From contig JAGRAX010000001.1 in the NCBI GenBank assembly GCA_020434365.1, positions 8,568-72,567 of the forward strand: a stretch of DNA of 64,000 nt, read 5' to 3'. The stretch is from Bdellovibrionales bacterium. GTDB lineage: Bacteria > Bdellovibrionota_G > JALEGL01 > JAGRMV01. Position 1 is the first letter of the stretch. Each line of letters begins with the position of its first letter. Positions 9,263 to 56,400 of this stretch are shown piece by piece. The position numbers and the translations under genes are program-made. The notes beneath the pieces were generated by a model. That model saw only the letters and a list, made by a program, of their open reading frames with translations. It was not told the origin of the DNA and made no database searches.

Positions 9263-10102
9263 CTATAAAAAATTTTTGCTTTTGAGAGGCTTTTTTCTAG
9301 TTTCAGCAATGGTATCCAGCATCACTCGATGAAGTTTTTTGTTACTGGCTACAATTTGCCTGTTCCAAAAGTCTTTGATTTTTTTTCCCTCATAGTCTGT
9401 GACTTTTCCTCCCGCTTCTTCCACAAGTAGAATCCCCGCAGCCACATCCCAGGGATGAAGTCCCGGTTCCCAAAAGCCATCAAAGCGTCCACATGCAACT
9501 TGTGCCAAGTCTGTTGCTGCAGATCCCGGCCTACGCACGCATCTGGAACGAAGTTCAAAACGAACAAAAGCGGCCATGTTGTTTTCGTCGCTCTCTTTTC
9601 GATCATAGGGAAAACCCGTAGCCAGTAAGGCTTGAGAGAGTTTTTTTGTGGAAGAGACGGAAATTTTTTCTCCATTGCAGTATGCGCCTTTCCCAGACAC
9701 AGCTGTGTACGTTTCTTTCCACAAAGGATGTGCGATGACACCAAAGAGAATTTTTCCCTTGGATACAAAGGCAATGGAGACCGCAAATACCGGAAAGCCA
9801 TGCGCAAAGTTTGTGGTTCCATCAATGGGATCGATGATCCATACCTCACCTTTGCGTGGATCTACGCTGTGATCACTTTCTTCGGCCAAAATCTGATGCA
9901 AAGGAAAATGCTGCCTAATGATTTTTTTGATGGCCGCCTCGCTGGCCAAATCTGCGGTCGTAACCAAGTCGCTCTCGCCTTTCATTGATGTGACGAAATC
10001 CCTTTGTTTGTAATGTTTTCGAATGATGGCGCAGGCTTTTTGAGCCGCAAGTTTTCCTACGGTTTCTATATTTTCAAGATCAATCTTTGAAGTATGTTTC
10101 AT
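9263..10102 (-). CDS. suhB: inositol monophosphatase family protein (SuhB-like)
   Basis: 279 aa with the IMPase motifs ..WIIDPIDGTTNFAHG.. and ..WDVAAG... Confidence 0.85.
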   Translation of the reverse strand: MKHTSKIDLENIETVGKLAAQKACAIIRKHYKQRDFVTSMKGESDLVTTADLASEAAIKKIIRQHFPLHQILAEESDHSVDPRKGEVWIIDPIDGTTNFAHGFPVFAVSIAFVSKGKILFGVIAHPLWKETYTAVSGKGAYCNGEKISVSSTKKLSQALLATGFPYDRKESDENNMAAFVRFELRSRCVRRPGSAATDLAQVACGRFDGFWEPGLHPWDVAAGILLVEEAGGKVTDYEGKKIKDFWNRQIVASNKKLHRVMLDTIAETRKKPLKSKNFL

Positions 10103-10247
10103 GGTCTATTGTGCTTTCTATGCTTATGAGGCCATTTCTGAGTCATTTTTCAGCAAGAGGAACCTGTTTTTTCTCTTAGTGTAAACTTTTGATTCCATTT
10201 TTTTTGCCGCTTTTTTTTAACTAGTGAATATCATTAAAGCAATGCGC

Positions 10248-10262
10248 TGGCACTGCTTTTGC
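10248..10262 (+). promoter_or_regulatory. sigma-54 (RpoN) -24/-12 promoter
   Basis: TGGCACtgcttTTGCT has an exact GG-N10-GC spacing, a perfect -24 TGGCAC and a TTGCT -12 element. It lies ~320 nt upstream of a sigma-54 activator gene. Confidence 0.55.
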
Positions 10263-10437
10263 TAAGTATATGGGCATGAAACAAAGATCAAAAGAAAATC
10301 GAAGGATGGGAAGAATGATCCCTGATCTTATGGATCGCTAACAAAGGCCTGCAGCACTTGGGTCTTTTCTCTCAAGACTCAAGTTGAGGCCAAGGCCCTC
10401 ACAAGAGGGATTATGGTTACCACAACAACGCAAGTAA

Positions 10438-10472
10438 AAGCCTGAATCGCTACCCTGATTCGGGCTTTTTTC
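10438..10472 (+). terminator. intrinsic terminator or attenuator hairpin
   Basis: 11-bp stem AAGCCTGAATC / GATTCGGGCTT (one G-U wobble) with an 8-nt loop, followed by TTTTTTC. It sits ~175 nt downstream of the sigma-54 promoter and ~100 nt upstream of the activator start. Confidence 0.5.
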
Positions 10473-10501
10473 TTTGACTGCCGAAATAATGCACAAATCG
10501 C

Positions 10502-10531
10502 TTGGTTTTTGCGCACAACATCGCGTAAAAT
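10502..10531 (+). promoter_or_regulatory. candidate sigma-70 promoter for the activator gene
   Basis: -35 TTGGTT, an 18-nt spacer and -10 TAAAAT, ending ~48 nt upstream of the ATG at 10579. Confidence 0.35.
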
Positions 10532-10578
10532 AGTAGTCATCCCACCCATTTTTGAGCAGAAAGTAGGCAAACTACAGC

Positions 10579-12417
10579 ATGGAATATGAAAAAACCCAAC
10601 CGCAGTTCATGGACAAAATTGATGACGAAAAATCCGTCCCTCTTGAAAAATCCTATTTGGTCGCTATGACCGGTCCCCAAGCCGGTACTGTATTCACACT
10701 ATCTGATGGGTCCATGATTGTGGGAAGACAACCGACTGCAGATATTTTTCTTAATGATCATCAGGTCTCTCGAAATCATGCCGAATTTGTCACCAGCATG
10801 GGAGAAACGCAGGTCCATGATCTGGGCTCAACCAATGGAACCTTTCTCAATGGAGAAAAACTAGAAAAAAAAGTGGCGATCTCTGATGGAGATGAAGTTC
10901 AGCTGGGCGCAACTTGTTTTCGATTTTCGATTCACAACCCCATCGATGGAAATCGACTGGGCCTGAGCAATCACGGATATTTTGAAACGCGTTTGCACGA
11001 AGAACTCGATCGAGCCTCTAGGTACAAACGAGATCTGTCTGTGCTCATGATCAGTCCTGCCATCGATCCCAAAGAAATTTTAGACAAAGCCAAACTCCTC
11101 TCGGACCACTACCCTGACGTCGTTGAAAAAATTCGAGGCATCATTCGCACCATGGATTTGCTCGCGCACTATGGAAAATATGAATTGGAACTTCTTCTGC
11201 CAGAAACATCGAAAAAAGATGCGTTAATTCTAGCAGAAAGAATCTTGGCCGATGCTACTTTTGGAAAAGATGAAAACCTTTCCATTGGAATGGCTTCTTT
11301 TCCGGAAGATGGGCGCACTCCTGACATCCTTTTAGAGCGATCTCGATTGGCTTTGAAAAAAGCTCGAACGGAGAAAAAAACCAAACCCGTTGTAGACTTG
11401 GCAGAAGAAAGACATCGTCTCATTCTTTCCAATGAAAAAGAAGTCATCGTTCGAAGCGAAAAAATGAAGGAGCTTTTTGATGTTATCGAGCGCATCGCCA
11501 AATCTACCATCACCGTTTTAATTCAAGGGGAGACAGGCGTTGGAAAAGAGGTTGTCGCTGAAACCATTCACACCAAAAGTGATCGCTCTAAAGATCCATT
11601 GGTTTGTGTCAACTGCGCGGCGCTTACGGAAACGCTTCTAGAAAGCGAACTTTTTGGACATGAAAAAGGATCTTTCACTGGCGCAGATCAAACCAAAATT
11701 GGTCTTTTCGAAAGTGCCAATGGTGGAACCATTTTTTTGGATGAGATTGGAGAAATGCCGCTAAAAACTCAGGCCAAACTTCTTCGCGTACTTCAAGCCA
11801 AGAAAATCATGCGCGTGGGATCAAACAAAGAAATTAACACCGATGTGCGTATCATTGCTGCCACTAATAGAAAGCTCGAAAAGCAAGTAGAGGAGAAGAA
11901 TTTTCGCGAAGACTTATTCTATCGACTCAATGCCGCTACGCTCACCATACCTCCACTACGAGAAAGGAAAAAAGAGGTTCCCTATCTCGTACAAACTTTT
12001 ATCAAAGAATGCTGTGAAGAAAACGGCATCGACAACAAGGACATTTCACCCGATGCCCTAGATATTTTGATGAAATACTCCTGGCCTGGAAACATTCGAG
12101 AACTACGAAATACCGTAGAGCGCGCCGTTGTCATTTCTGAAGGTGAGACCATTTATAAAGAAGCCTTGACCAGCAGACTCACCTCTGATGTAGATCAGAT
12201 CACTTCTTCTTCTTCGATCGACAATCTAGATGCGGCCGTAGACTCTACCATGGTCGGAGACATGAAAGAGGTCATCGCCGCATACGAAAGAGATCTGATC
12301 ATCAACGCCCTGAAGAAAACGCAGTGGAATCAAACGAAGGCCTCAGAAATTTTAAATGTTCCCAGAAGAACACTGGTCTCAAAAATCAAAAAGTACAAAA
12401 TCAAAGAGGATGAATAG
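10579..12417 (+). CDS. sigma-54-dependent transcriptional activator with an N-terminal FHA domain and a degenerate GGDEF-like domain
   Basis: 612-aa ORF. FHA motifs are ..GRQPTADIFLNDHQVSRNHAEF..GSTNGTFLNGEKL... The GGDEF-like fold reads ..RYKRDLSVLMISPAID..IRTMDLLAHYGKYELELLLPETS... The AAA+ sigma-54 interaction motifs are VLIQGETGVGKE, ESELFGHEKGSFTGA and GGTIFLDEIGEM, and a C-terminal Fis-type HTH is NVPRRTLVSKIKKY. Confidence 0.85.
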   Translation: MEYEKTQPQFMDKIDDEKSVPLEKSYLVAMTGPQAGTVFTLSDGSMIVGRQPTADIFLNDHQVSRNHAEFVTSMGETQVHDLGSTNGTFLNGEKLEKKVAISDGDEVQLGATCFRFSIHNPIDGNRLGLSNHGYFETRLHEELDRASRYKRDLSVLMISPAIDPKEILDKAKLLSDHYPDVVEKIRGIIRTMDLLAHYGKYELELLLPETSKKDALILAERILADATFGKDENLSIGMASFPEDGRTPDILLERSRLALKKARTEKKTKPVVDLAEERHRLILSNEKEVIVRSEKMKELFDVIERIAKSTITVLIQGETGVGKEVVAETIHTKSDRSKDPLVCVNCAALTETLLESELFGHEKGSFTGADQTKIGLFESANGGTIFLDEIGEMPLKTQAKLLRVLQAKKIMRVGSNKEINTDVRIIAATNRKLEKQVEEKNFREDLFYRLNAATLTIPPLRERKKEVPYLVQTFIKECCEENGIDNKDISPDALDILMKYSWPGNIRELRNTVERAVVISEGETIYKEALTSRLTSDVDQITSSSSIDNLDAAVDSTMVGDMKEVIAAYERDLIINALKKTQWNQTKASEILNVPRRTLVSKIKKYKIKEDE

Positions 12418-45975: not shown

Positions 45976-46461
45976 TTAGGCTTGAGGACTGATTCCGTTT
46001 TTGCTTTTGTCGGCTGTGGCCTTGACTGCAGCAAAGGGCGCATTTTTCTTTTGATGAGCAGACTTACTCATGCTGCACTTTCCATCAAACTGTACTCCAT
46101 CTTCGATAACAAGGGATGGGGTATCAATGTCTGCTTCTACAACTGCATTTTTGTGGAGTTCAACGCGGGTTTTTGCATGAATGTTTCCCTGAAAACTTCC
46201 CGAAATGGATACTGAACCCACATTGATGTCACCTTCGACTTTTCCGCTTTCGCCGATGACCATGTGTGATTCGGAATAAATTTGACCCTTAAATGTGCCG
46301 TCGATGCGAACCGTACCCTCAAAGGTGAGCTTGCCTTCGAACTCACTACCACGATCTAAAATCGCATTGAAGCCACCGACAGGGGTCGTTACTTTGTGAC
46401 CTGCTCCGTTGGTACTGAAACTCTCGCTCTGTGTACTTCGTTCATTTTTTAGGATTCCCAT
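45976..46461 (-). CDS. bactofilin (polymer-forming cytoskeletal protein, DUF583)
   Basis: 161 aa with the bactofilin beta-helical repeat pattern (..GKLTFEGTVRIDGTFKGQIYSESHMVIGESGKVEGDINVGSVSISGSFQGNIHAKTRVELHKNAVVEADIDTPSLVIEDGVQFDGK..). Only 3 nt separate it from the downstream b' gene. Confidence 0.85.
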   Translation of the reverse strand: MGILKNERSTQSESFSTNGAGHKVTTPVGGFNAILDRGSEFEGKLTFEGTVRIDGTFKGQIYSESHMVIGESGKVEGDINVGSVSISGSFQGNIHAKTRVELHKNAVVEADIDTPSLVIEDGVQFDGKCSMSKSAHQKKNAPFAAVKATADKSKNGISPQA

Positions 46462-46684: not shown

Positions 46685-47623
46685 ATGCCAAAACCCACCC
46701 TTCTTTTTCTGCTTGTCATCGTATCTTGTTCCCGGCTATGGGCTCAGGAAAAATCTCATCCAGAGGACGCTTTTCCTTGGGTTGAGTTTCGGCAAAGGCC
46801 TTTTTCTATCCAAAAGCCGGAGCGTATTCGACATCAGGTTTGGCACAGCGCCTGGATCAAGGGCATTCATAGGAAGTTCATTCTACAAAACAAGACCCAA
46901 GATCCACCAACTGGACCTACGATCTGCGCGCCTGTGAAAGAGTTAGACCATGCGTATCTTTGCATCAGTGCGAGGCAGGAGGACCAAAATCGGCTCTTTT
47001 CTCGTATGTCGATTTTTTCAGAAGGCACCAAGGCTCTCGCTCCTGGAACCTGGGTGGAACTTTCAAACCCTTGGTATCAATACTATAGTTATATGGTCGG
47101 TGGTCACGATCTGAGACAGAGCGTTCTTCAGGATTTTTTCTCTCACAGCCAAGCAAGCAAGCGGCCTTTATCTCCAAGGGAAGATGCTTTTTATAGGGAG
47201 GTATTTCTTCCTCTGGAAAAGAAATATTTCGACCCCTCGCCACAAGCTGAAAACATAAAAGACTTTGGATCCATGCAAGCCTATTCGATCATTACAGCAT
47301 CTGTACAAAGTCATTTGGATTTTGAGGTGGTTGTAACGCATGAGTTTTTGCATGCGCAGTTTTATCTAGACTCTCAACTTCAAAAACTTTTGTTAGAATA
47401 TTGGAAACGTAAACTTACAGAAAAAGAAAGGGCGGACATCACCCTCGCTCTTTCGAAAGCTGGATATCACAAAGAGGATTTGTATGTTGTCATCAAAGAA
47501 TTTTATGCCTACCTTTTTCAGAAAGATGCGCAGCACTCACGCATGAAACCTTGGGTCAACACTCATCAAAAAAAAATTCGCCGAAGATTAAAAAAAGCAG
47601 GCATTCCCGCATACACATTTTAG
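46685..47623 (+). CDS. hypothetical secreted protein with an HExxH motif
   Basis: 312 aa with a signal peptide and a single HEFLH motif. No confident family assignment. Confidence 0.4.
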   Translation: MPKPTLLFLLVIVSCSRLWAQEKSHPEDAFPWVEFRQRPFSIQKPERIRHQVWHSAWIKGIHRKFILQNKTQDPPTGPTICAPVKELDHAYLCISARQEDQNRLFSRMSIFSEGTKALAPGTWVELSNPWYQYYSYMVGGHDLRQSVLQDFFSHSQASKRPLSPREDAFYREVFLPLEKKYFDPSPQAENIKDFGSMQAYSIITASVQSHLDFEVVVTHEFLHAQFYLDSQLQKLLLEYWKRKLTEKERADITLALSKAGYHKEDLYVVIKEFYAYLFQKDAQHSRMKPWVNTHQKKIRRRLKKAGIPAYTF

Positions 47624-47626
47624 TGT

Positions 47627-48544
47627 TTATAAAGATGAAAAGCCAAAAGACTCTAGCGCAGCTTTTGCAACTTGCTCGCCATGCTCTTGTACAAAATGCC
47701 CCGCCTGCGAAAGACATAGCGGAGGCGGGCAGTTGGCAATAACTTTGCTCATGGGTAGCATCACATCCGGTCCAAGAATGGGATCTTTCATCCCAATGGC
47801 CATAAAACTGTCTCCACTCCAAGAAGTCTTCCACCACGCAAGAGCTTGCTGCGAAAGTTTGGCAATTGGGTCGTCAGATGAGGTAGGTACAAGATCTGGA
47901 AAACGTCGTACTCCAGCGCAGTAACGTCCATTTGGAAAAGGCGCGCTATAGGCCGATGCTTCTTCTTGGCGTATTGAAGGTTCCCATTTTTGCATCAGCC
48001 TGTCCACGTGAAGAAAGTCATGCTTTCGATTGAAATCTCTCCACTGCAAAAAAGCCTCGTTGACCTTTCCGATTCCAAAACCCGTATTCATGATTAACAG
48101 TCTTGTGAAAAGACTTGGCATTTCCATGGGAAGCGTTAAGCCCAAAAGACCTCCCCAGTCCTGGCAAACCAAGGTGATATTTGTAAGCTCTAGTTTTTCG
48201 ATCAAGGCAATCAAAAGGTTGCGATGAAAGTTAAAGGTATACACTTCATCGTCAACAGGTTTGTCTGATTGTCCAAATCCGAAAAAATCTGGAGCCACAA
48301 CGCGAATCCCCTTTTGCACAAAAACAGGAATCATTTTTCGGTAGAGATAACTCCATGTCGGCTGGCCATGCAAACACAAAAAAATATCTTTGGAATCTTT
48401 TGGACCTTCATCGAGATAAGCAAGACTCAATCCCTCATAGCCAGGTACATTTTCGAGTCTGAGTGTAGAGAATGAATACCCTGGCAAAGCTTCGAAGTTT
48501 TCCTGCGGCGTCCGAAGAACTTGAGTTGATCGCATCAGACTCAA
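47627..48544 (-). CDS. haloalkane dehalogenase-like alpha/beta hydrolase (HLD-I / DhlA-like)
   Basis: 305 aa with long stretches resembling Xanthobacter DhlA as I recall it. ..FLCLHGQPTWSYLYRKMIPVF.. and ..APDFFGFGQSDKP.. are present, as is ..ITLVCQDWGGLLGLTLPM.. with the Asp nucleophile in QDWGG and catalytic His in ..AGHFVQEHGEQVA... Its ATG abuts the parB stop. Confidence 0.7.
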   Translation of the reverse strand: MSLMRSTQVLRTPQENFEALPGYSFSTLRLENVPGYEGLSLAYLDEGPKDSKDIFLCLHGQPTWSYLYRKMIPVFVQKGIRVVAPDFFGFGQSDKPVDDEVYTFNFHRNLLIALIEKLELTNITLVCQDWGGLLGLTLPMEMPSLFTRLLIMNTGFGIGKVNEAFLQWRDFNRKHDFLHVDRLMQKWEPSIRQEEASAYSAPFPNGRYCAGVRRFPDLVPTSSDDPIAKLSQQALAWWKTSWSGDSFMAIGMKDPILGPDVMLPMSKVIANCPPPLCLSQAGHFVQEHGEQVAKAALESFGFSSL

Positions 48545-49480
48545 CTAGTTTCGAAGTTTATCAAAAAAACCTTGCAGCTCCGATCGCGAAAAATAGCTGA
48601 TCGTGATCTCACCCTTTTCATGGGTTTTGGGTTTGATTTGTACTTTGGTTCCCAATTGTCTTTGTAAATTTTCTTGAAAGTTTCGAAGAAACACATCCAA
48701 ATCCGAAGTGCTTTGAGTTTTTTTACTCTTGCGGTTGGGGTTTGCAATTTCGTTTTTTACAAGATTTTCAATCTGCCTCACAGAGAGATCTTCTGCGATG
48801 CTTCTTTGGGCTAAGCGTGTTTGTTTGTTGGGATCTGAACTTGCAAGCAGCGCACGTGCATGCCCCATGCTCAATTGTTTTTCGCTTACAAGTTTTTGAA
48901 CAGAGTTGGGAAGTTTGAGCAAGCGAAGCATATTGGTCACCGTGCTTCGATTTTTTCCTGCTTTTTGTGCGAGTTCTTCATGACTCAAAGAAAACTCTTT
49001 TTGAAGGCGCTGATAGGCAAGAGCTTCTTCGATGGGATCCAAATCTTCCCGTTGTAAATTTTCAATGAGCGCGATTTCCAATTGTTCTTGGTCTGTGCTG
49101 GAACGAACAATGACGGGAACATTTGTAAGTCCGAGTTTTTTGCAAGCTCGAAGTCTTCGCTCACCCGCAATGAGTTCATAGTGAATGCCCACACGTCTGG
49201 CAACCAAAGGCTGAATGACTCCATGCTCTTTGATGGAGGCAACCAGATCTTCCAGGGCTTCATCCCGAAAATATTTTCGAGGTTGGCGTGGATTGACTTG
49301 GATGTCCTGAATTAAAACATCTCGAACAAGCGCGCTGGTTTCAAAATTTTTTTCTTCCGTAACACTATTTTTGCTCACTGTAGATGCGTTTGTAGAAACT
49401 GCACTTTGAGCCTTTTCATCAAAGGATTTTTTTTGAGGAATCAGTGAAGAGAGTCCTCTTCCGAGTCTTTTTTCTTTCAT
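48545..49480 (-). CDS. parB: chromosome partitioning protein ParB
   Basis: 311 aa with ParB box motifs (..GERRLRACKKLGL..) and an HTH. It is downstream of parA. Confidence 0.9.
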   Translation of the reverse strand: MKEKRLGRGLSSLIPQKKSFDEKAQSAVSTNASTVSKNSVTEEKNFETSALVRDVLIQDIQVNPRQPRKYFRDEALEDLVASIKEHGVIQPLVARRVGIHYELIAGERRLRACKKLGLTNVPVIVRSSTDQEQLEIALIENLQREDLDPIEEALAYQRLQKEFSLSHEELAQKAGKNRSTVTNMLRLLKLPNSVQKLVSEKQLSMGHARALLASSDPNKQTRLAQRSIAEDLSVRQIENLVKNEIANPNRKSKKTQSTSDLDVFLRNFQENLQRQLGTKVQIKPKTHEKGEITISYFSRSELQGFFDKLRN

Positions 49481-49483
49481 TGC

Positions 49484-50317
49484 TTACAGCCTTTCTATGT
49501 TTGCAGGTTCTGAGTTTGTTTGCAGTTCTTGCAGGGGCGCTTGTTGTTTTTGTTTTTGTCGGTCAAAAAACTCTTTGGCGAGAGCCAGATAGTTTTGCGC
49601 ACCACTACTGCGAATGTCATACATCAAAATAGGTTTTCCAAAACTCGGTGCTTCACTTACGCGTACATTTCTTGGAATTTTTGTTCGATACAAAATCCGT
49701 CCGAAATGATTTTTGACTTCGAGTTCTACCTGATGACAGAGAGAATTTCGTTTGTCGAACATGGTCAGAAGTATGCCTTCCAATCGAAGTTTGGCATTGA
49801 GGTTTTCTCGGACGAGATCAATGGTTTGAACCAACCGACTCAAACCCTCTAAGGCGTAATACTCCGCTTGCAGGGGAACAATCACTTGGTCTGCGCAGCT
49901 CAAGGCGTTGACTGTGAGTAGGCCCAATGATGGTGGGCAGTCAATAAGAATGTAGTCGTACTGCTCGCTCACCTGCTGCAAAAGTTTTTTGAGTTGGTAT
50001 TCCCTCTCGGGCAAATCTACAGCTTCGATTTCAAAACCAATCAAATCTGGTGTCGTAGGCATGACATCCAAAAAAGGTGTGTCCGTTTTTTTAATGATCT
50101 GCTCTGCACTGCTCTGTCCAATCAATCCGTCATATAGCAGATGCTCTTGACCTGCGGTCACACCTACGCCGCTGCTTGTATTGGCTTGTGGATCTAAATC
50201 AACCAAAAGAACTTTTTTTTCTTGAACCGCAATAGAGGCTCCCAGGTTGATGGTGGAGGTGGTTTTACCCACACCACCTTTTTGATTGGACATGGCGATG
50301 ATTGTAGCTTTGCTCAT
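49484..50317 (-). CDS. parA: chromosome partitioning ATPase ParA (Soj)
   Basis: 277 aa with a deviant Walker A KGGVGKTT. Its start overlaps the mnmG stop. Confidence 0.9.
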
Positions 50318-52197
50318 GAATTCTCCTTGATGGATTGGCTTTGGAATTTCTTTACGTACATAGAAACAATACTCACAGCTGCGGGCGTAACACCGGAAAT
50401 TCTAGAGGCCTGTCCCAGTGTGTGAGGTCTGATGCGTGAGAGTTTTTCTCGAACTTCTGTGGAAAGACTTGGAAGCTGAGCATAGTCAAAAGTTTTTGGA
50501 ATCACCGTGTGCTGCTCTTTTTCACTTCTGGAAATGTCTTGCTGCTCGCGCGAGATATATCCCTCATATTTGCAAGCAATGTGAAGGTTTTCAATGTAGT
50601 CATGCTGCTCTTTTTCCAACTGTGGTGCCAAAACTTGTAAATGTTTCCACTCCACTTCCGGCCTTTTGAGAAAGTCCCACAAACTGTTGGGACTCTTGAG
50701 CGGTGTCAAACCCATCTGCGTGATTTTTTCGTTGGTTGCGGGTGTGGGTGTAAGTCGAAGGCTTTGAAGTTTTTGTTTGCTGTGCTCGATGAGGTGGTTT
50801 TTTTCCTTAAACTTTTGATAACTCCACTCCTCAACCGTTCCAAGAGCATAGCCTTTTTCTAGCAGTCTTTGATCTGCATTGTCTTCCCTTAAGTGCAGGC
50901 GATGCTCTGCCCGTGAGGTAAACATGCGATATGGCTCCGTCGTCCCTTTGGTTACAAGATCATCGACCAAAACGCCGATGTAGCTTTCTGACCTAGACAG
51001 CACAAAGGGTTCAAAGTTTTTGTCTAGAGACTTTGCAGCATTCACACCTGCAAGCCAGCCTTGAGCTGCGGCTTCTTCATAACCTGTGGTTCCATTGATC
51101 TGCCCTGCATGAAAAAGTCCCGGAATTTTTTTCACCTCAAGCCACGGCGAAAGTTCGGTAGGATCAATATAGTCATATTCAACGGCATAGCCCGGGCGCA
51201 TCACTTCAACCTTTTCCAGGCCTTTCATACTACGGAGAAACTCCACCTGTGTTGCCAAAGGCAAGGAATTGGACAGGCCGTTGGGATAGATTTCTGCTGT
51301 TTCTAGGCCCTCAGGTTCTAAAAACACTTGATGTGCGTCTTTGTCAGCAAATCGAACAATCTTGTCCTCAATGCAGGGGCAGTAGCGGGGACCGACACTT
51401 TGGATTTTTCCGCTATACATGGCAGATTGTGAAAGTTTGGATTGGATGATTTGATGAGTCCGAGCATTGGTATAGGTCACATGGCAGGGAAGCTGCTTTT
51501 GACGAGTAGGTGTTCGGAAAAAAGAAAACTGTGGCGTGGGCTCGTCCCCAGGTTGCTCTTCTAAGATATTGAAATTAATAGTTTTTTTATCAAGTCTGGG
51601 CACGGTTCCTGTTTTCATCCGCCCTCTGCGAAGCCCCACACCCAAAAGAGTTTCACTCAAAGACTTCGAGGCCTTGTCGCCAGAGCGACCTCCGGACAGA
51701 CTCAAAGCTCCGATATGCATCAGACCATTGAGAAAGGTTCCGGTTGTCAAAATGACGGCCCCCGCTCTGAGCTCTTCACCAAAGTGAGTGACAACACCCA
51801 CACATCGACCTTGATCCAAGATAAGGTCCTCTACCATAGCCTCTCGGCATACAATAGAAGAGTGAGATTCAATGATACTTTTGGTTTTTCGTGCGTAGAG
51901 ATCTTTGTCAGCCTGCGCCCGCGTTGCCCAAACCGCTGGGCCTTTGCGTGTATTCAGGGTTCGAAATTGTATACCTGTTTCATCAATAGCCCAGGCCATC
52001 ACTCCACCCAAGGCCTCGACTTCTTTTACCAAGTGTGACTTTCCCAAACCCCCAATTGCCGGATTGCAGGACATATGCCCAATTCGATCTAAATTACTGG
52101 AAACCAAAGCTACTTTTGCTCCCATTTGAGCCGCGGCCCAGGACGCTTCGATCCCGGCATGACCTCCTCCAACAACAATGACATCAAAAGTGTTCAT
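50314..52197 (-). CDS. mnmG: tRNA uridine-5-carboxymethylaminomethyl modification enzyme MnmG (GidA)
   Basis: 627 aa with an FAD-binding N-terminus [14 protein letters not shown] and conserved MnmG blocks throughout. Confidence 0.95.
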
Positions 52198-52198
52198 G

Positions 52199-52921
52199 TT
52201 ACCGTCTCACCAAGCTTTCAGTTTCATAATAACGATTGGCCACAGAGACATTGGGATACACAAGACAAGCTGGGGCCATCAGCACACCGGGGTTTAAAAC
52301 GCTGTTACATCCTGTTTGACAGCCGTCACCTATAATGGCGCCCATTTTTCTCAAGCCTGACTCTATGTCATCCCCTTGAATTCGAAGCTTGACTTCTCCA
52401 TCCGTAATTTTCAAGTTCGAAACTTTCGTACCCGCTCCCAAATTGACCTCATTGCCAAGAATGCTGTCCCCAACATAGGCAAAGTGCGCGGCCTTAGCGC
52501 CGTTACAAAAAATAGAACTTTTCACCTCTGTCGCATGACCAATCACACAGTGTTCTCCTGCAATCAAACCTCCCCGGATATAGGCTGATTGGCGAATCTG
52601 ACTGTGAGGACCTATAATACTGGGTCCCTGAATGTAGGCTCCAGGCTCAACGGTCACACCTTCTCCAAGCTCAACCTCTCCCTCAAAGTAAGCTCCAGCT
52701 TTAATATAGACCTTTCCTCCCCCTCTGGACCTTAATTCTGTATCTTCTAAAATCAGTCCCTGTGGAGTGTTCGGTGAAATTTGACTTTCAATCCACTCTT
52801 CTTTTACTCCCTTTGACAAAATATCCCAGGCAAATTCTAGATCTTGAAAAAGATCACGAAACCACAAAAGCTTTGTGTCGACATAGTGATCAATATTATA
52901 TGTTTCACGTGAAACATTCAT
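52199..52921 (-). CDS. hexapeptide-repeat (left-handed beta-helix) protein, probable acyl/nucleotidyl-transferase-like
   Basis: 240 aa with repeated [LIV]G..x..x hexads through the central region. It lies 1 nt upstream of mnmG, and its first codons contain an 18-bp palindrome. Confidence 0.5.
52900..52917. promoter_or_regulatory. perfect 18-bp palindrome ATGTTTCACGTGAAACAT (copy 1)
   Basis: 9+9 perfect inverted repeat overlapping the start codon region of the 52199..52921 gene. An identical core occurs at 53064..53083. Confidence 0.5.
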
Positions 52922-53063: not shown

Positions 53064-53083
53064 CATGTTTCACGTGAAACATG
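53064..53083. promoter_or_regulatory. perfect 20-bp palindrome CATGTTTCACGTGAAACATG (copy 2)
   Basis: Starts 15 nt downstream of the dnaN stop. It shares the core of copy 1 with one extra base pair on each side. Confidence 0.5.
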
Positions 53084-54231: not shown

Positions 54232-54479
54232 TCCCTTAAGATAGTATATTCTTTAATATAAAATTCGTCGTAATAGAAGATCTTGTGGATAATTTTTTTC
54301 TTCTATACAAGTTATGAATTTTATTTATGAAATCGTTAAAAAACCCCTGTGGAAAAAAACCATTTTGTAAAAGTTTATTCCAAGACATGTATTTTCCAAA
54401 GTTGCAAACCTGTGGAAGATAGAGCAATTTTCCACAGAAGTTCACATGCTTTGTGGATAAGATAGTAAAAAAAAGTTTA
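54232..54479. other. candidate oriC: DnaA-box cluster in the dnaA-dnaN intergenic region
   Basis: Perfect TTATCCACA boxes (as the complement TGTGGATAA) lie at 54283..54291 and 54451..54459. Near-perfect boxes lie at 54347..54355, 54411..54419 and 54427..54435. AT-rich stretches are at 54249..54280 and 54460..54479. Confidence 0.6.
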
Positions 54480-55939: not shown

Positions 55940-56400
55940 CCCTTTTTTCAAAACGCTTATCCACAACTATATCTTTCAAATTAAAAAATTGTAAGGCTTT
56001 GAAAATGCAACCAATAGTCAGACAATTTCGATTCTCCCAATCAAAGAAAAAAAAGATTCCTATCCACAGTTTCACCTTCGGTCACCGCAGACCGAAAAAA
56101 ATACGCGCCCAAATTCTTCTTCACTATCAAAGACTAAGAAATTCATTGTACATGTTGTTCTATAAGTCATCGACCATAAGCTTTTAAAATCAAGACAAAA
56201 AACCAAAGGAAAAAAATCACATACTCATTTTACCAGGTGTTTCTAGGTCCAAACCTAAAACGAAGACATTCCCTGTGGACAAATAAAAAAGACAAAAGCT
56301 CATAAAAAAAAATCCAAAACAAGAAACGTAAATATCTAAGAAAAAAAACCATGTGATACTAAGCGATTACATGAAATTTAAAGAAGAATTTGCAGAATAT
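55940..56400. other. second DnaA-box/AT-rich region upstream of dnaA (possible bipartite origin or dnaA autoregulatory region)
   Basis: A perfect TTATCCACA lies at 55947..55955 and a one-mismatch box (TTGTCCACA) at 56275..56283. Positions 56150..56400 are strongly A-rich, inside an ~870-nt non-coding gap between dnaA and rpmH. Confidence 0.45.

Follow-up and report, generated by a model that had tools for sequence, protein, structure and literature searches.

It is likely that the gene directly downstream of parB in the stretch of DNA analysed here (64,000 nucleotides, hereafter the window) encodes a haloalkane dehalogenase (HLD) of subfamily HLD-I with a DppA-like cap, that this gene occupies a variable slot and is probably co-transcribed with parAB, and that it came to lie next to parAB through a chance insertion in this lineage, without being functionally coupled to these genes. 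The family membership, the pentad, the fold and the lack of conserved linkage are shown by the analysis, whereas the enzymatic activity, the substrate range and the co-transcription are inferred. The positions of the gene, of its catalytic codons and of the neighboring features are collected in Table 1.

An earlier note on this DNA had placed a haloalkane dehalogenase gene at positions 47627 to 48544, without naming a strand. According to the ORF list and the sequence of the window, an uninterrupted ORF lies at exactly these positions on the minus strand, and the gene is real and intact. The same note had stated that the ATG of this gene abuts the parB stop codon, and this point has to be corrected. 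The codon abutting the parB TAG (48547-48545) is TTG (48544-48542), which is in frame with the HLD gene, and the first ATG (48535-48533) is 9 nt past the parB stop. In the NCBI annotation of this MAG, the gene starts at the TTG and encodes a protein of 305 aa (MCB0326029.1, "alpha/beta fold hydrolase [Bdellovibrionales bacterium]"). With the ATG, which is the start chosen by other gene callers, the protein has 302 aa (protein P0001 is 100% identical). Because the HLD homologues begin 3 residues ahead of the conserved LRTP, the ATG start is favored over the TTG start. Residues of the HLD protein are numbered from this ATG. A strong Shine-Dalgarno sequence is lacking in front of the ATG, where there is just GAG at -7 to -5. 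Two independent records contain the junction of parB, the HLD gene and the downstream region with 100% identity: one is a Logan contig from SRR7638773, the other an ENA contig listed under two samples (ERZ27309108). Therefore, an assembly chimera is unlikely.

Table 1. Features of the parB-HLD locus in the window (positions in nucleotides of the window)
Feature	Position	Strand	Description
HLD-I haloalkane dehalogenase CDS (putative), from first ATG	47627..48535	-	302 aa; TAA stop 47629-47627
Spacer from parB stop to HLD ATG	48536..48544	-	9 nt; junction AAC TAG TTGAGTCTG ATG
Nucleophile Asp126	GAC 48160-48158	-	= DhlA D124, DppA D123
First halide-binding Trp127	TGG 48157-48155	-	= DhlA W125, DppA W124
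Cap-domain halide-binding Trp165	48041..48043	-	= DhlA W175, DppA W163
Catalytic acid Asp251	47783..47785	-	= DhlA D260, DppA D249
Catalytic base His280	47696..47698	-	= DhlA H289, DppA H278
Candidate intrinsic terminator, weak	47597..47610	-	GCGGG-AAUG-CCUGC then U7; 17 nt after HLD stop
parB	48545..49480	-	311 aa; Pfam ParB_N, HTH_ParB, ParB_C; TIGR00180; directly upstream of HLD
parA	49484..50317	-	277 aa; Pfam AAA_31, CbiA, ParA; start overlaps mnmG stop by 4 nt
mnmG (gidA)	50314..52197	-	627 aa; Pfam GIDA domains; heads co-directional gene string
Convergent orphan gene	46685..47623	+	312 aa; signal-like N-terminus; conserved HExxH; stop 3 nt from HLD stop
Bactofilin gene	45976..46461	-	Pfam Bactofilin 1.7e-31
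Perfect parS, copy 1	52901..52916	.	TGTTTCACGTGAAACA
Perfect parS, copy 2	53066..53081	.	second perfect copy

The sequence and the predicted structure of the protein clearly point to a haloalkane dehalogenase of subfamily HLD-I. At 318.6 bits, the match to the NCBIfam model for haloalkane dehalogenase (NF002043) exceeded the curated cut-off of 265, and the scores for two other dehalogenase models (NF002938 and NF002873), which probably describe the other HLD subfamilies, were far under their cut-offs. Pfam Abhydrolase_1 was matched at 2.7e-21. In a sequence search of the PDB, the top matches were DppA (2xt0, E 6e-109), DhlA (1b6g, E 2.5e-108) and DpaA (7avr, E 8e-105); further down came the more distant HLD-I enzymes DmrA, DpcA and DccA (1e-53 to 1e-60), followed by HLD-II enzymes (about 1e-18 to 1e-20). 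The earlier note had reported long near-identical runs with the HLD-I prototype, and this observation holds: the protein is 56.5% identical to DhlA and shares with it exact stretches such as PTWSYLYRKMIPVF. An AF2 model built with 120 homologues was confident (mean pLDDT 95.3, pTM 0.93) and has a helical cap (residues 160-237) on an alpha/beta-hydrolase core. The top Foldseek match for this model was DppA (2xt0), with a TM of 0.96 and an rmsd of 0.9 Å, and all of the best 50 matches in the PDB were haloalkane dehalogenases. The enzyme is a new, somewhat divergent member of a well-known enzyme family, from Bdellovibrionota, and its nearest sampled homologue is 68% identical.

We also considered an epoxide hydrolase. 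No epoxide-hydrolase model was among the NCBIfam matches of the protein, and when the PDB was searched by sequence, the nine top-ranked distinct entries were all dehalogenases, as were the 50 best Foldseek matches. The protein is therefore much closer to dehalogenases than to epoxide hydrolases. Neither a closer kinship to epoxide hydrolases nor a loss of catalytic residues, two of the findings that the earlier note had named as speaking against its assignment, was observed.

The residues of the catalytic pentad were mapped via HMMER alignments to DhlA and DppA, and all five are conserved (D126/H280/D251/W127/W165; Table 1). The motifs pointed out in the earlier note (the Asp in QDWGG, a His near the C-terminus and halide-binding Trp residues) were all found: the nucleophile Asp is in CQDWGG, and His280 is followed by 22 residues up to the C-terminus. 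When the 120 best homologues from the database were aligned, no variation was seen at D126, W127, D251 and H280 (120/120), and the position of W165 is Trp in 116 of the 120. The pentads of the HLD subfamilies have been described (PMC6100074, PMC3938430), as have the pentad of DppA (D123/H278/D249 and W124/W163) and its SN2 mechanism (PMC6100074). In the window protein, the catalytic acid is an Asp at the HLD-I/III position after strand beta7, not the HLD-II Glu after beta6, and the second halide residue is the cap Trp, which forms a Trp-Trp pair, not the Asn of HLD-II/III. The position of the HLD-II Asn is occupied by Gln58 (HGQP), and across the clade this position is E or Q. The pocket residues F162, F212, P213, V216, L254 and F281, which correspond to DhlA F172, F222, P223, V226, L263 and F290, are conserved. 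DhlA F128 is replaced by Leu, like in most of the clade. The change of DhlA E56 to Gln (HGEP to HGQPTW) was considered as an oddity and dismissed, because it is an ordinary polymorphism (66 E versus 54 Q among the homologues).

By analogy with the characterized enzymes, the product of the gene would be a cytoplasmic HLD-I haloalkane dehalogenase (EC 3.8.1.5). Asp126 would attack the halogen-bearing carbon by SN2, while Trp127 and the cap residue Trp165 would hold the leaving halide. The resulting alkyl-enzyme ester would then be hydrolyzed by a water molecule activated by His280, with Asp251 orienting His280, and an alcohol would be formed together with a halide and a proton.

Outside the active site, the window protein is unusual in its clade. 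Of about 109 columns conserved at 93% or more, 8 have a non-consensus residue in this protein (Y26R, L30V, R37S, H39A, P173D, D174F, K206C and G224I). This is more than in any of the 119 homologues compared (mean 2.15, sd 1.43, maximum 6), although part of the excess reflects a long branch because the comparison set was chosen by similarity to the window protein. Y26R, L30V, R37S and H39A cluster in the N-terminal strands, two deviations are in the cap and none is catalytic. The excess of deviations suggests that constraint on the protein may be relaxed or shifted.

The setting of the gene is as the earlier note had described it in two respects. The upstream neighbor is a genuine ParB with three Pfam domains and is preceded by ParA. 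The locus is also origin-proximal: dnaA, dnaN, DnaA boxes and two perfect parS sites are within 8 kb. Upstream of the locus, yidC, rnpA, dnaA and dnaN are encoded, and the DnaA boxes cluster around dnaA. On the other side, the interval between parB and the bactofilin gene consists of the HLD gene and the convergent orphan gene. Only one homologue of the convergent orphan was found among 5.8 billion proteins; HEFLH/HELLH is conserved in their alignment, and the AF2 model of the orphan has a pLDDT of 44.7. Rfam and tRNA scans of the window gave no matches. Genes for catabolic partners (alcohol or aldehyde dehydrogenase, haloacid dehalogenase) were not found adjacent to the HLD gene.

The composition of the HLD gene is ordinary for the window. 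Its GC content is 0.453 (window, 0.429 ± 0.026), its GC3 is 0.415 (window, 0.404 ± 0.043) and the z value of its codon-usage likelihood is about -0.8. Signs of a recent horizontal transfer were found in none of these three measures. Therefore, an acquisition of the gene, if there was one, is either old or involved a donor whose composition was similar. Flanking repeats could not fit into the gaps on the two sides, which measure just 9 nt and 3 nt. HLD relatives on plasmids, including those on dhlA plasmids (54.4%), are at most 57% identical to the window protein. Because sampling has yielded only a single close relative, the time of an acquisition is poorly bounded.

The HLD gene is probably co-transcribed with parAB. 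In a scan from the parA start to the HLD start, no promoter-like site was found on the minus strand. Given this result and the 9-nt gap to parB, the HLD gene is most likely the last gene of a (mnmG-)parA-parB transcript. The poor Shine-Dalgarno sequence is compatible with re-initiation after parB. The candidate terminator behind the gene falls within the 3′-terminal part of the convergent orphan, and its hairpin (dG -10.8 kcal/mol, z -1.26) is not significant. Overall, promoter- and terminator-like sites were as frequent as expected by chance. Because of these two results, we can only infer the transcription unit.

The earlier note had asked whether the linkage of parAB and the HLD gene is conserved in relatives. 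It is not. The source genome is an uncultured Bdellovibrionota MAG, and its lineage is thinly sampled and may be predatory. A ParB scan of 185,579 species genomes detected one close relative (L006), whose ParB is 74% identical; in a ParB search of 5.8 billion proteins, the next ParBs after L006 were at most 54% identical. Gene order in L006 matches that of the window to either side of the parB-bactofilin gap: on one side, dnaA (77%), dnaN (81%), LbH (70%), mnmG (77%), parA (83-84%) and parB (74-76%), and beyond the gap bactofilin (75%) and atpA (89-92%). The gap itself contains six minus-strand genes in L006, namely a DUF938 methyltransferase gene, four orphans and a homologue of the convergent orphan (45%), and an HLD gene is not among them. 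Two more distant loci, L090 and L091, keep the backbone LbH-mnmG-parA-parB-bactofilin-atpF'-atpF-atpH-atpA. In L090, the gap is empty and bactofilin follows straight after parB; in L091, the gap contains one unrelated gene of 502 aa. Neither has an HLD gene there. Counting these two, four contexts from relatives with a ParB at most 54% identical were examined, and none has an HLD gene. Thus, the parB-bactofilin gap is a variable slot with 0, 1, 2 or 6 genes according to lineage, and the HLD gene is present in it in the window genome only.

We looked at the linkage from the side of the enzyme as well. Eighty-three other HLD-I loci were available, of which 80 were metagenomic and three were copies of the locus of the closest homologue. 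ParA or ParB was encoded in the flanks of none of them (0/83), and 59 of the 83 have at least 1 kb of upstream sequence. The gene for the closest HLD (68% identical) is in a genome of 52% GC, between small hypothetical genes and an HTH gene. The 132 nearest neighbors of the other HLD-I genes fall into 101 Pfam families, the commonest of which, TetR_N, occurs in 5. Hence no family is enriched among these neighbors that could point to a native pathway. In this clade, HLD-I genes stand alone and lack a conserved context, and the same is true for the HLD gene in the window. The earlier note had seen meaning in the position next to parB; with the linkage missing in L006, L090, L091, Bdellovibrio bacteriovorus HD100 and the 83 other HLD-I loci, this idea is not supported.

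As only one genome has an HLD gene next to parB, this arrangement seems to result from an accidental insertion rather than from a functional partnership. The opposite idea, that the gene was recruited to the parAB operon for expression timed with replication or segregation, or for action together with ParAB, could draw on the 9-nt gap to parB and on the absence of an internal promoter-like site. Moreover, the parAB operon of B. bacteriovorus is cell-cycle regulated (PMC10547168), so a passenger gene in such an operon would inherit this timing. However, the slot contains 0, 1 or 6 unrelated genes in the relatives, none of the 83 other HLD loci is near parAB, and there is no plausible chemistry between a haloalkane hydrolase and DNA partition. 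We therefore regard a functional linkage as extremely improbable. Hardly more credible is a related reading, in which the HLD gene was captured as the last gene of a cell-cycle-regulated parAB transcript, so that the enzyme would be made specifically in the growth and replication phase and might, for example, detoxify halogenated metabolites of prey or of an algal host. If it were true, it would offer a rare handle on the natural role of an HLD-I enzyme. In the literature searched, we found no link between haloalkane dehalogenases and the biology of Bdellovibrio.

A different doubt concerns the function of the gene itself. Left over from an old transfer and under relaxed selection, it could be a passenger that is decaying or neutral and does little or nothing in this organism, as the 8 substitutions at conserved columns, the weak Shine-Dalgarno sequence and the lack of an HLD gene at this locus in the only close relative (L006) might suggest. 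Against this, the frame of 302 codons is intact, every catalytic and pocket residue is kept and the AF2 model is confident. The native-like codon usage implies a long residence without inactivation, and genes that are retained are typically packed as tightly as this one (gaps of 9 nt and 3 nt). Therefore, we think a passenger improbable. Somewhat less far-fetched, but still unlikely, is a protein that has the HLD-I fold and pentad and a different native reaction (compare OleB, a beta-lactone decarboxylase of HLD-III), with dehalogenation as a side activity. This would fit with the deviations from the consensus, in which the window protein exceeds all of its relatives and which extend into the cap, and with the lack of adjacent catabolic partner genes. 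What HLDs do in vivo is in general not known, and there are HLD-III members with other native reactions (PMC10503415). However, the Trp-Trp pair is conserved in the window protein and in nearly all of its relatives, as described above. To our knowledge, this halide-binding pair has no role besides the stabilization of halide. Furthermore, the characterized relatives of this branch (DhlA, DppA and DpaA) have PDB entries as haloalkane dehalogenases, and the activities of DhlA have been tabulated (PMC3938430). The suggestion of the earlier note that the enzyme may have a non-xenobiotic substrate is equally applicable to any genomic HLD.

With a stand-alone HLD-I enzyme in a variable slot as the preferred reading, the practical result is an upgrade of the annotation from "alpha/beta fold hydrolase" to HLD-I haloalkane dehalogenase with a DppA-like cap, which has little meaning beyond annotation. 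The enzyme is a divergent HLD of Bdellovibrionota, with no sampled sequence more than 68% identical to it, and could be screened by enzyme miners. The parB-bactofilin junction of this clade can be viewed as a slot that takes up lineage-specific genes. The case also calls for caution, since operon adjacency in a single genome is a poor guide to function.

Finally, we compared the locus and the enzyme with known systems. In B. bacteriovorus HD100, parA (bd3906) and parB (bd3905) are followed directly by the bactofilin gene (bd3904), and two parS sites are upstream (PMC10547168). The window resembles this locus in the order parA-parB ... bactofilin and in the two upstream parS sites. The two genes parB and bactofilin are adjacent in HD100 and also in L090, a MAG locus, whereas in the window the HLD gene and the convergent orphan are between them.

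Among the characterized enzymes, DhlA from Xanthobacter autotrophicus GJ10 (PDB 1b6g, 2had, 1edb and others), the HLD-I prototype, is 56.5% identical to the window protein over 292 columns, and the pentad and six pocket residues are identical. The two proteins differ in the cap. The stretch from N150 to W165 contains 14 residues in the window protein, whereas that from N148 to W175 in DhlA contains 26. DhlA thus has a 12-residue insertion of its own, which is missing in the window protein and in its 120 nearest homologues, all of which have the short cap form of 14-16 residues. This insertion reportedly consists of short tandem repeats, which have been interpreted as an adaptation to 1,2-dichloroethane that arose recently. 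At the positions of DhlA F128 and E56, the window protein has Leu and Gln. Furthermore, DhlA is encoded on a plasmid, in association with IS elements (PMC6299022), unlike the window gene, which is chromosomal and of native composition. We considered a narrow enzyme of the DhlA type, adapted to 1,2-dichloroethane, and rejected it because the extended cap segment is absent, with a gap of 12 columns in the alignment to DhlA. The description "DhlA-like" in the earlier note therefore holds in the sense of an HLD-I enzyme with its pentad; it does not hold in the strict sense of the DhlA type, because the cap insertion is missing and the best structural match is DppA.

DppA from Plesiocystis pacifica SIR-1 (2xt0) is the best match both in the sequence search (E 6e-109) and in structure. 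Its pentad is identical, its identity to the window protein is 52.6% over 293 columns, and its cap loop is short, with 15 residues from Asn to Trp against 14 in the window protein. Because of this short loop, the alignment of the two proteins needs just one single-residue gap. DppA reportedly favors 1-bromobutane and refuses chloroalkanes. The differences are that the identity is only about 53% and that the host of DppA belongs to Myxococcota and that of the window gene to Bdellovibrionota. DpaA from Paraglaciecola agarilytica NO2 (7avr), another HLD-I enzyme, is similarly close (about 53% identity, TM 0.95-0.96), and has a feature of its own, a tetrameric structure that is unusual in HLD-I (PMC10503415). 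Because the 12-residue insertion of DhlA is absent and the cap has the same short form as in DppA and DpaA, the window enzyme is closer to these two than to the 1,2-dichloroethane specialist. By analogy with these enzymes, we would expect it to act on bromo- and iodoalkanes and on small dihaloalkanes, and not to share the specialization of DhlA for 1,2-dichloroethane.

The gene convergent with the haloalkane dehalogenase gene encodes a 312-aa orphan protein, which has a signal-peptide-like N-terminus and no match in Pfam. Among 5.8 billion proteins, a single homologue (45-46% identical) was found, in the only close relative MAG (L006), and its gene is also located in the parB-to-bactofilin gap. 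The HExxH motif is conserved in the orphan protein (THEFLHAQFYL). This protein may be a secreted zinc-metallopeptidase-like protein that is lineage-specific. In the context of a more distant relative, L091, the only gene between parB and bactofilin encodes a 502-aa protein, for which Pfam gave no match. With this gene, the slot has a second, independent occupant. In codon usage, the 187-aa ORF is the most atypical of the window, with a GC3 of 0.543 and the lowest codon likelihood, and it is almost certainly spurious.

Features in the window and in L091
Feature	Position	Strand	Remark
ORF, 187 aa	45652..46215	+	antisense to atpF' and bactofilin genes
Convergent orphan gene, 312 aa	46685..47623	+	
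mnmG	50314..52197	-	
Left-handed beta-helix (LbH, hexapeptide-repeat) protein gene, 240 aa	52199..52921	-	precedes mnmG
parS	52901-52916		perfect (TGTTTCACGTGAAACA)
parS	53066-53081		perfect (TGTTTCACGTGAAACA)
DnaA-box cluster	54284-54460		matches to TTATCCACA
DnaA-box cluster	55957-56282		matches to TTATCCACA
L091 gene, 502 aa	5033-6541	as parB/bactofilin	between parB and bactofilin

The order LbH-mnmG-parA-parB is a clade signature because it is also found in L006, L090, L091 and L092. In the window, the mnmG stop and the parA start overlap, and rsmG (gidB) is absent between these genes. In L006 parB (10001-10922), query residues 1-259 and 261-310 match in different frames, which points to either a frameshift or an assembly error in the L006 record.

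When up to one mismatch was allowed, four DnaA-box sites were found in the dnaA-dnaN spacer (54284-54460) and three upstream of dnaA (55957-56282). These two clusters are candidate oriC segments. The two parS copies are spaced by 165 nt; the hexapeptide-repeat gene holds one of them within its 5' end, and the spacer between dnaN and that gene holds the other. This pair resembles the two upstream parS sites described in B. bacteriovorus.
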